27,257 bases of DNA from a virus (IMGVR_UViG_2513237251_000001), one strand, 5' to 3'. Positions 2,809-3,198 are shown, counted from the stretch's first letter. Program-made: numbers and translations. The notes: generated by a model from the letters alone, not told the origin.

Positions 2809-3198
2809 TTAGTGAGTTGCACCTATTAATTTTAAAATAAATACAATTGGTGTTTTTCGAGTTTTTCTTAACTCTTCATGCAGCTCCGTTCTCAGAATAT
2901 ATGATTTTTCGAGTTTGAAATTCTTGCGACCAGGCGTCTTATTGCCAGGCTCAGGAAGTGGAAGGCGTGTTTGAATGTCGAGTGGTGGACAGTCATAGAA
3001 GTAAATTCTATAAAGCTCAAGCGGTTCCCTACGTTCTTGTGATTGACGTTTTCCATTAAGATGGGAAAGAACCATTGACCATATTACTTTCATTATGCAT
3101 TGCGCAGTCAGTTCATGCTCGGCGAAGTGTTTACGATGCGTAGCATGAACACGCTGCATGAAAAAACCCGCATCAATTAAAATTGCTGCTTTCTTCAT
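2809..3198 (-). CDS. hypothetical protein at the rexAB position between cI and OL (unknown function)
   Basis: 129-aa ORF (MKKAAILIDAGFF...) downstream of cI on the same strand, where lambda carries rexA-rexB; no resemblance to RexA/RexB that I can see; AT-rich. Confidence 0.5.
   Translation of the reverse strand: MKKAAILIDAGFFMQRVHATHRKHFAEHELTAQCIMKVIWSMVLSHLNGKRQSQERREPLELYRIYFYDCPPLDIQTRLPLPEPGNKTPGRKNFKLEKSYILRTELHEELRKTRKTPIVFILKLIGATH

Follow-up and report, generated by a model that had tools for sequence, protein, structure and literature searches.

The stretch of DNA analysed here, termed the window, is 27,257 nt in length (IMGVR_UViG_2513237251_000001) and represents the cryptic prophage of E. 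coli O157:H7 that is termed CP-933H in strain EDL933 and Sp1 in strain Sakai. Window positions 2400–4140 display 100% identity to E. coli O157:H7 chromosomes. The window starts with proA, and tRNA-Thr is next in the matching O157 record. These are followed by a 5′-truncated integrase gene, a lambda-type immunity region, a frameshifted O gene, and P and tail-fibre fragments. A remnant of the N antiterminator gene, ∼20 codons in length (2377..2437, minus strand), is fused at position 2377 to the 5′-truncated integrase gene (1459–2379), and the prophage is therefore considered to be heavily deleted. The early-left operon from N to xis is entirely absent, and the integrase fused to the N stump has no N-terminus. 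Comparison of positions 4785–6000 with locus L004 reveals the O frameshift and two fragments of P, with tail-fibre genes and the pinE invertase gene directly after. With its replication genes decayed, CP-933H/Sp1 is unable to replicate or assemble.

An earlier note on this DNA, made from the sequence alone, described a lambda-type immunity region on both sides of a short interval, and this description holds. On the left, OL1 (2667–2683), OL2 (2691–2707) and OL3 (2711–2727) have one, zero and zero mismatches to the lambda operators, respectively, and a promoter scan finds a PL promoter-like site, TTGACA-17-GATACT, at 2693..2665 on the minus strand. On the right, OR3, OR2 and OR1 (4050..4113) have no more than one mismatch each, and a PR promoter-like site, TTGACT-17-GATAAT, is found at 4087..4115. 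OL1 and OR2 (4073–4089) each differ from lambda by one base. The cI gene (3326–4039, minus strand) encodes a 237 aa lambda-type repressor, which is identical to lambda cI at 233 of 237 positions; the substitutions are T3A, K71N, R129K and D139G. The interval between the cI stop codon and OL3, previously estimated at ∼600 bp, measures 598 bp.

Lambda homology stops at 2851 on the left and restarts on the right at 3322, which is 4 nt beyond the cI stop codon (lambda-like DNA 3322..4039, minus strand). Position 3322 is taken as the right edge of the inserted cassette. The rexAB position is occupied by unrelated DNA, which lies in the same place as lambda rexA–rexB, between cI and Timm/OL. The flanks display 92–97% DNA identity to lambda; the cargo has been swapped and the immunity region kept. 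Alternative cargoes at the rex position are also found in the wild lambda-immunity phages HK244, HK542, HK544, mEp332 and CL707 (GenBank EF120455–EF120459). Lambda rexA–rexB is a two-gene operon co-transcribed with cI, whereas the cassette has just one nuclease gene, which is preceded by a promoter and a leader terminator of the cassette itself. The two cargoes share no sequence similarity, and the window copy is truncated. BLASTP of the open reading frame product and its full-length relative against the lambda proteins shows no likeness to RexA or RexB (best E = 0.3, over 8 residues), in agreement with the earlier note. That rexAB has been replaced is also correct. The replacement is not, however, a single unrelated gene, as had been suggested, but 116 of the 285 codons of an annotated family plus a 13 aa tail. 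As a substitute for rex, it is an accessory (moron) cassette of the usual kind.

The open reading frame at the rex position

The open reading frame encodes 129 aa from an ATG start and is located at 2809..3198 on the minus strand. It is annotated as Z0308/ECs0273 (WP_000708838.1), a ‘hypothetical protein’; neighbouring cI is Z0309/ECs0274 and cII is Z0310/ECs0276. Codons 1–116 (3198..2851) represent the N-terminal 41% of a 285 aa NYN-domain protein. Codons 117–129 (2850..2812, with the stop codon at 2811..2809) are a read-through into lambda-like spacer DNA and encode the tail PIVFILKLIGATH. The closest phage record is that of Escherichia phage ev099, whose immunity region is 99.5% identical and 577 bp longer. 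At the rex position ev099 carries an 858 bp gene that encodes a 285 aa product, annotated as ‘NYN domain-containing protein’ (gp48, YP_009909946). Residues 1–116 of the window product are identical to the ev099 protein, and a foreign tail comes after.

The first sign of truncation comes from PHROG 5783, which matches the open reading frame product at E = 8e-42, but only over profile positions 1–108 of 246. The product thus shows no full-length homology to the 285 aa family (PHROG 5783; ∼250–300 aa). When searched alone, it has no match in Pfam (even at E <= 10), NCBIfam or PADLOC, and it does not reach the gathering threshold of 24.2 bits for Pfam NYN (PF01936). The conserved acidic set of the family, consisting of the strand-1 aspartate, the central aspartate(s) and the GDxDF motif, is incomplete, with D9 and D69 only. 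In some assemblies PGAP labels the open reading frame ‘PIN domain-containing’.

The full-length protein belongs to a large family, with 7034 homologues at E <= 1e-5, almost all of 250–300 aa. Residue conservation was determined from alignments of 25 and 58 members. Invariant or near-invariant residues that are kept in the stump are D9, H46, LYR62–64, Y68, D69, P72, P80 and K115. Those that are deleted are Q160, K161, D164, K166, G168, D170, G188, D189, D191, F192, P194, K197, R200, H222, D224, W249 and W250; D164, D170, D189 and D191 are invariant in 58 homologues. This conservation across the family suggests a catalytic role for the conserved aspartates. Pfam NYN matches the full-length ev099 protein at 36.8 bits (cutoff 24.2), and the match covers residues 158–205 only, which are in the deleted part.

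The AlphaFold2 model of the full-length protein (mean pLDDT 88, pTM 0.81) has one alpha/beta domain of residues ∼1–240 and a disordered basic tail. The best PDB matches of the model are VPA0982 (2qip) and the MARF1 NYN domain (5yaa), both with a probability of 1.00. By sequence, the full-length protein has only chance-level matches in the PDB, and in PADLOC-DB v2 only weak matches to the core (HEC-09, E = 2e-4; NYN, E = 1.4e-3). The intact 285 aa product is predicted to be an NYN-fold (PIN-like) nuclease. The NYN/LabA-like nucleases (PF01936), including Vibrio VPA0982 and MARF1, thus have the closest folds, and the full-length homologue, which passes the Pfam threshold, resembles them in its aspartates, which are located where strand 1 ends and within a GDxDF motif. 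The subfamily differs from other NYN proteins in large insertions (residues ∼70–97 and 120–160) and in a lysine/arginine-rich disordered tail. The window copy has nothing after residue 116 of the NYN protein and is below the Pfam threshold.

The NYN fold is matched over the whole length of the model, and the break at residue 116 is accordingly inside the domain, just before a strand formed by residues 116–120. What remains in the stump is strand 1, which carries D9, then two helices, strand 2, which carries D69, a small hairpin and a further helix; at least three core strands of the model are lost. Because these strands and the invariant D164, D170, D189 and D191 are lost, the stump product should be catalytically dead and is probably unfolded, as judged from the predicted structure. 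The open reading frame may still be translated, and nothing enzymatic should come from it; a non-catalytic activity of the truncated fragment could in principle be retained.

Z0308/ECs0273 is a truncated member of the NYN family and most likely a pseudogene. With high confidence, the 129 aa open reading frame can be regarded as the non-functional remainder of an accessory cassette that took the place of rexAB in a phage with lambda immunity and now resides in the decayed CP-933H/Sp1. The earlier note had held only weakly that the N-terminal AAILIDAGFF sequence recalls PIN/NYN-like nucleases. This hunch is borne out by the 36.8 bit Pfam NYN match of the full-length homologue, by the 2qip and 5yaa folds and by the PGAP label. 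Of the searches that the note proposed, the profile searches give nothing beyond PHROG 5783 for the open reading frame alone; for the full-length relative, both Pfam and the fold of the model identify NYN. The note also named a truncated remnant of a known gene as the finding that would overturn its proposal, and the 576 bp deletion relative to ev099 is such a finding. The annotation of Z0308/ECs0273 should be that of a truncated NYN-domain pseudogene from an IS629-associated deletion, and it should not be followed up as a candidate for exclusion.

The deletion junction

Alignment of the window with ev099 by blastn yields two collinear blocks: window 2377–2851 aligns with positions 2777–3252 of the ev099 locus (L001), and window 2851–4400 aligns with positions 3829–5378. 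The deletion junction is at 2851..2852, where 576 bp are absent relative to ev099 (L001 3253–3828). The lost DNA comprises 169 codons (117–285), the stop codon and 66 bp with the Timm terminator (ACCCGGC...GCCGGGTTTTCTTT). With Timm and the intact nuclease gene gone, any read-through transcript would run across OL/PL into the N stump.

A different allele is found in O157 strain FDAARGOS_293, which has a 1310 bp IS629/IS1203 element exactly at the junction. The sequence reads ...CAATTGG / IS629 / AGGCTGTTTTT... and, in full, ...AAATACAATTGG / TGAACCGCC...IS...GGCGGTTCA / AGGCTGTTTTTCGAG. The AGGC sequence beside the IS in FDAARGOS_293 is also present in the intact ev099 gene (...TTAAGGCTGTTTTT) and is absent from the window. 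Because FDAARGOS_293 keeps AGGC, the IS-bearing allele is not derived from the window allele. In O157, IS629 is a highly active element, and its excision by the IS-excision enhancer takes small flanking deletions with it. The likely order of events would be an intact gene, an IS629 insertion with an adjacent deletion, and a loss of the IS together with four bases to give the window allele. A microhomology-mediated deletion was considered, but only 1 nt is common at the junction, and the IS629-bearing allele provides the better explanation. Elsewhere in the window, a full copy of IS629/IS1203 is present at 12480–13786 and is 99.6% identical to the junction copy of FDAARGOS_293 (L097).

Several E. 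coli copies with independent damage are found among the database proteins. P0029 has a frameshift after residue ∼147, P0092 is without its N-terminus, and P0096 is also damaged. Such copies would be expected if the gene is costly, but equally from ordinary decay of prophages. In P0096, a 170 aa protein of a Logan assembly, residues 1–116 are found exactly and then a different tail (DCRNIIRC...), with a breakpoint at the same codon as that of the window. Strain 2015C-3107 was considered as a carrier of an independent nonsense allele, but its locus (L005 6519–7376) translates uninterrupted into 285 aa with one substitution, D252A. PGAP splits this NYN gene in two and labels one piece a pseudogene, which looks like an annotation artefact.

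Promoter, leader RNA and distribution of the cassette

A predicted sigma-70-type promoter of the cassette, TTGACG-17-TAGATT, is found by scan and by conservation in the region 3279..3309 (elements at 3307..3279, minus strand). The −35 element is inside the palindrome GTTGACggcacaGTCAAC (3309..3290, minus strand), and the distance from the end of the −10 element to the leader hairpin is 10 nt. The promoter scan of the window alone gave three sites, with 2.8 expected; the match is thus unremarkable in the window and has weight only from its conservation. The conserved leader RNA is at 3206..3273 on the minus strand (covariance model R1, 85.8 bits, E = 2e-20) and ends 8 nt before the ATG of the open reading frame. 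Its hairpin (3268..3216) has 17 bp in three segments and is followed by a U7 run (3213..3207), i.e. it is shaped like an intrinsic terminator. The hairpin plus T7 run that the earlier note had seen between cI and the open reading frame is this structure (3268–3207, minus strand). A single-sequence terminator scan missed it because the loop is larger than 8 nt.

Over positions 2851–3344 the promoter and leader of the window are 100% identical to the copy in Stx2a phages, and the leader is identical to that of ev099. At the sequence level, the promoter and leader RNA of the window are intact and identical to functional-looking copies. Expression of Z0309 (cI) is detectable in one O157 transcriptome. 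Published transcription or protein data for the spot occupied by the open reading frame and leader were not found in the literature search, and the rows covered in the sRNA table from the Hfq-CRAC work by Tree et al. (2014) contain no RNA of Sp1.

Leaders were defined as the 130 nt upstream of the gene, and 80 IMG/VR loci provided 42 distinct leaders. All of them display the same order of elements: a −35 element TTGAC[AGT], a spacer of 16–18 nt, a TAnnnT −10 element, a long hairpin, a U-run, a Shine-Dalgarno sequence and ATG. The −10 element ends 8–18 nt before the stem, and the pattern of this predicted promoter is present in all 26 distinct proteobacterial leaders. The hairpin and U-run end 8–50 nt before the start codon.

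RNA secondary structure is also conserved. RNAalifold of 21 distinct proteobacterial leaders reveals 17 base pairs in three stacked helices, 12 of them with compensatory double changes, and almost no broken pairs. Paired cells amount to 97.5%, compared with 85.3 ± 1.0 in shuffles, and changes on both sides of a pair are found in 47 cells, compared with 12.3 ± 2.8; the observed values were reached by none of 500 shuffles, although such shuffle controls leave some phylogenetic signal in the covariation statistics. When the 3′ partner is slid by 1–3 columns, pairing falls to 25–44%. Model R1 finds one strong match per proteobacterial-type locus (64–86 bits), located on the coding strand ∼8–10 nt before the start codon. 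The reverse strand scores just 16–26 bits, and there are no additional copies. Another scan, of one genome per species, gave 80 loci, which are in Gamma-, Beta- and Alphaproteobacteria, Acidobacteriota, Bacteroidota, Verrucomicrobiota, Elusimicrobiota, Spirochaetota and Bacillota. R1 matches 13 of these loci.

Genes of more distant proteins (38–48% identity) have a second hairpin variant, in which the stems covary and the internal loops, 5′-GG CAGUA(C/A)G ... GCCGANCC-3′, are almost invariant; an AUCC-like element is in the apical loop. In the outer stem of 23 such leaders, double changes are found in 26 cells, compared with 6.8 ± 2.2 in shuffles. Model R2 gives 42 same-strand matches directly upstream of the gene in many phyla, including that of phage phiE202, and no strong match elsewhere. 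In the alignment fitted to R2, 91% of cells pair and there are 75 double changes (24.5 ± 4.9 in shuffles). A third and longer variant precedes genes of gut Bacteroidales and Firmicutes. The RNA subtype tracks the protein subfamily, and unpaired bases are conserved across phyla. Rfam 15, searched in permissive mode (E <= 1), contains no family that matches the leader, either that of the window or those of 20 diverse loci. In the full-text literature searched there is no paper that links NYN genes to an RNA partner, or that describes NYN prophage defence or an Sp1 sRNA. Within the literature and Rfam searched, the leader RNA is undescribed.

The cassette in ev099 is ∼990 bp, as determined from the limits of lambda homology in the window and in ev099, where the lambda-like left flank extends to L001 position 3311. 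A total of 470 bp (2852–3321) survive in the window. The intact ev099 cassette has a sigma-70 promoter, a ∼65 nt structured RNA/terminator, the 285 aa NYN gene and Timm. Of 5426 complete genomes of E. coli, 74 contain the intact gene region (at least 80% coverage). The half-length, deleted allele is present in O157-type genomes at 99% identity or higher. A 100% identical intact protein is encoded by ev099, 2B8, E212, EC.P3 and 48 records of Stx2a-converting phages.

The location of the gene varies between genomes. In 2B8 and the Stx2a phages the gene and its leader come after different repressors, and identity to the window begins in or just past the 3′ end of the repressor gene, with the hairpin included. 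In the P22-like Proteus phage Brookers (74% aa identity) the gene is directly after a LexA-type repressor gene. In an Edwardsiella prophage (54%) it separates Q from the lysis genes and is encoded on the other strand, and in the P2-like Burkholderia phage phiE202 (41%) it is between portal/BrnT–BrnA and int. A Pantoea homologue has a chromosomal context. Thus, the cassette is mobile and is found at accessory hot spots. Because the gene, hairpin and promoter travel together in all contexts examined, the hairpin belongs to the cassette rather than to cI and is more than a cI terminator. A BrnT/BrnA toxin–antitoxin pair is a few kb from the cassette in the Edwardsiella lambdoid prophage (L006 10161–10677), and such a pair is also found at a similar distance in the unrelated phiE202 (L012 1277–1781).

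Possible functions of the RNA and the nuclease gene

The intact cassette is a compact, self-contained module of a promoter, a conserved terminator RNA and an NYN RNase gene. It recurs at the rex slot, at the Q–lysis moron slot and at P2-type hot spots, and thousands of homologues are present across bacterial phyla. A description of its function was not found in the literature searched. The order of parts resembles that of type III toxin–antitoxin and AbiF loci, and by this analogy a related function may be proposed.

Type III toxin–antitoxin loci consist of a promoter, a non-coding RNA, an intrinsic terminator that sets the RNA:toxin ratio and a ribonuclease gene, and are found on phages and plasmids, with a role in abortive infection (PMC3401426). 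The cassette has the same order of parts as ToxIN, CptIN and TenpIN: its predicted promoter is directly upstream of the RNA, and an intrinsic terminator is between the RNA and the nuclease gene. The cassette differs in that its single hairpin is the terminator itself, and the protein has an NYN fold rather than the ToxN/Kid-like fold of type III. Tandem Repeats Finder detected no ToxI-like array of tandem repeats in window 2700–3400, where the promoter abuts the single hairpin. With no repeat array and a non-ToxN-like fold, the cassette is outside type III as defined.

In AbiF/RCd22, from a Clostridioides difficile prophage, a structured RNA precedes the gene of a toxic RNA-targeting protein, and RCd22 both lowers AbiF expression and neutralises the protein, to which it binds directly; it acts in cis as well as in trans (PMC12373285). 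The cassette is similar in having a conserved structured RNA ahead of a prophage-borne gene. The AbiF protein, however, is Abi_2/HEPN-like and its RNA motif is different; no Rfam family, including abiF, matches the cassette leader. HEC-09, an NYN candidate in PADLOC, shares the NYN catalytic core, with the weak E = 2e-4 match limited to residues 155–200. Unlike the cassette protein, it has an N-terminal HTH-like and a C-terminal NYN architecture, and it failed to protect against the phages with which it was challenged (bioRxiv 10.1101/2024.01.29.577857). In view of this result, and because PADLOC has no convincing family for the cassette protein, a defence role is viewed with caution.

In intact cassettes, transcription would start a few bases before the stem and most transcripts would end at the U-run, to give an RNA of ∼65 nt. 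Rare read-through would then make the nuclease. The RNA, whose internal and apical loops are conserved in sequence, may be specifically recognised, with the nuclease itself as the most economical candidate, and might either attenuate expression in cis or serve as an inhibitor (antitoxin). A potentially toxic RNase would in this way stay in check until infection or stress. We tentatively propose, as a possibility, that the 3206–3273 hairpin belongs to a cross-phyla RNA class dedicated to one NYN subfamily, that RNA and protein together form an RNA-controlled toxin/abortive-infection module, similar to type III but with a single hairpin, and that the O157:H7 RNA is an orphan. In the same tentative proposal, the module would occupy accessory hot spots in prophages of the lambdoid, P22-like and P2-like types, with Stx2a phages among its carriers.

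Three other explanations have been considered. The earlier note viewed the substituted gene as a candidate superinfection-exclusion or abortive-infection factor co-expressed with the repressor. The location at the rex position, the open reading frame with its intact promoter, leader and start codon, and the retention of the truncated allele in roughly 200 or more O157 genomes are in its favour. The open reading frame is, however, a deletion product that lacks 169 of 285 residues, the Pfam-detectable core and the four invariant aspartates, and its 13 aa tail is a read-through of spacer DNA. Its retention in O157 reflects clonal descent and is no sign of selection. The missing catalytic half makes the window copy a poor candidate, and the earlier proposal is wrong for this copy. 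Simple co-expression with cI is likewise not supported, as both a terminator hairpin and the cassette promoter are between the two genes. A functional exclusion factor in the 129 aa product is thus highly improbable. A second explanation is that the hairpin does no more than terminate the cI transcript (from PRM or PRE), as any generic terminator or insulator would, and is conserved by co-inheritance, without a specific RNA function. The canonical form, with a GC-rich stem and a U-run, and the location just past cI in lambdoid contexts would agree with this, as would the relatedness that the shuffle control leaves in the hairpin statistics. Nevertheless, the hairpin is downstream and not upstream of the cassette promoter in every leader, and in Edwardsiella and phiE202 it accompanies the gene where no co-oriented gene is upstream. 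In addition, the internal loops (CAGUA(C/A)G and GCCGANCC) and the apical AUCC-like element are conserved while the stems covary, which is needless for a plain terminator. A purely generic terminator is therefore unlikely.

The remaining explanation is that the leader is a cis attenuator that senses a small molecule or host factor (riboswitch-like, or NusA/NTP-sensing) instead of the NYN protein, with the nuclease a regulated housekeeping or stress RNase and neither a toxin nor a defence protein. Conserved internal-loop sequences in a terminator stem do recall ligand- or protein-binding leaders, and many homologues are chromosomal and in diverse phyla. No alternative (anti-terminator) pairing is seen, however, and the whole conserved structure is the terminator. 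The gene recurs at prophage accessory hot spots, near BrnT/BrnA, integrases and tRNA genes, and the RNA subtype follows the protein subfamily. A sensory leader of this kind is rather doubtful.

If the tentative RNA-plus-nuclease model holds, a nuclease family and an RNA class would be added to the few RNA-controlled toxin/defence systems, and the rex position of Stx/lambda-like phages would gain a second mechanistic example besides RexAB. The model also raises the question of the orphan RNA in O157:H7. Should the RNA be an inhibitor, perhaps the orphan could blunt the same nuclease from an incoming phage.

One further feature of the leaders is the palindrome around the −35 element. It resembles an operator for a dimeric DNA-binding protein; the cassette itself has no regulator gene. 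The general form, TTGAC-N6–9-GTCAA, is found in many but not all leaders, including those of the window (3290–3309) and of loci L006, L014, L025, L038, L051, L054, L080 and L082.
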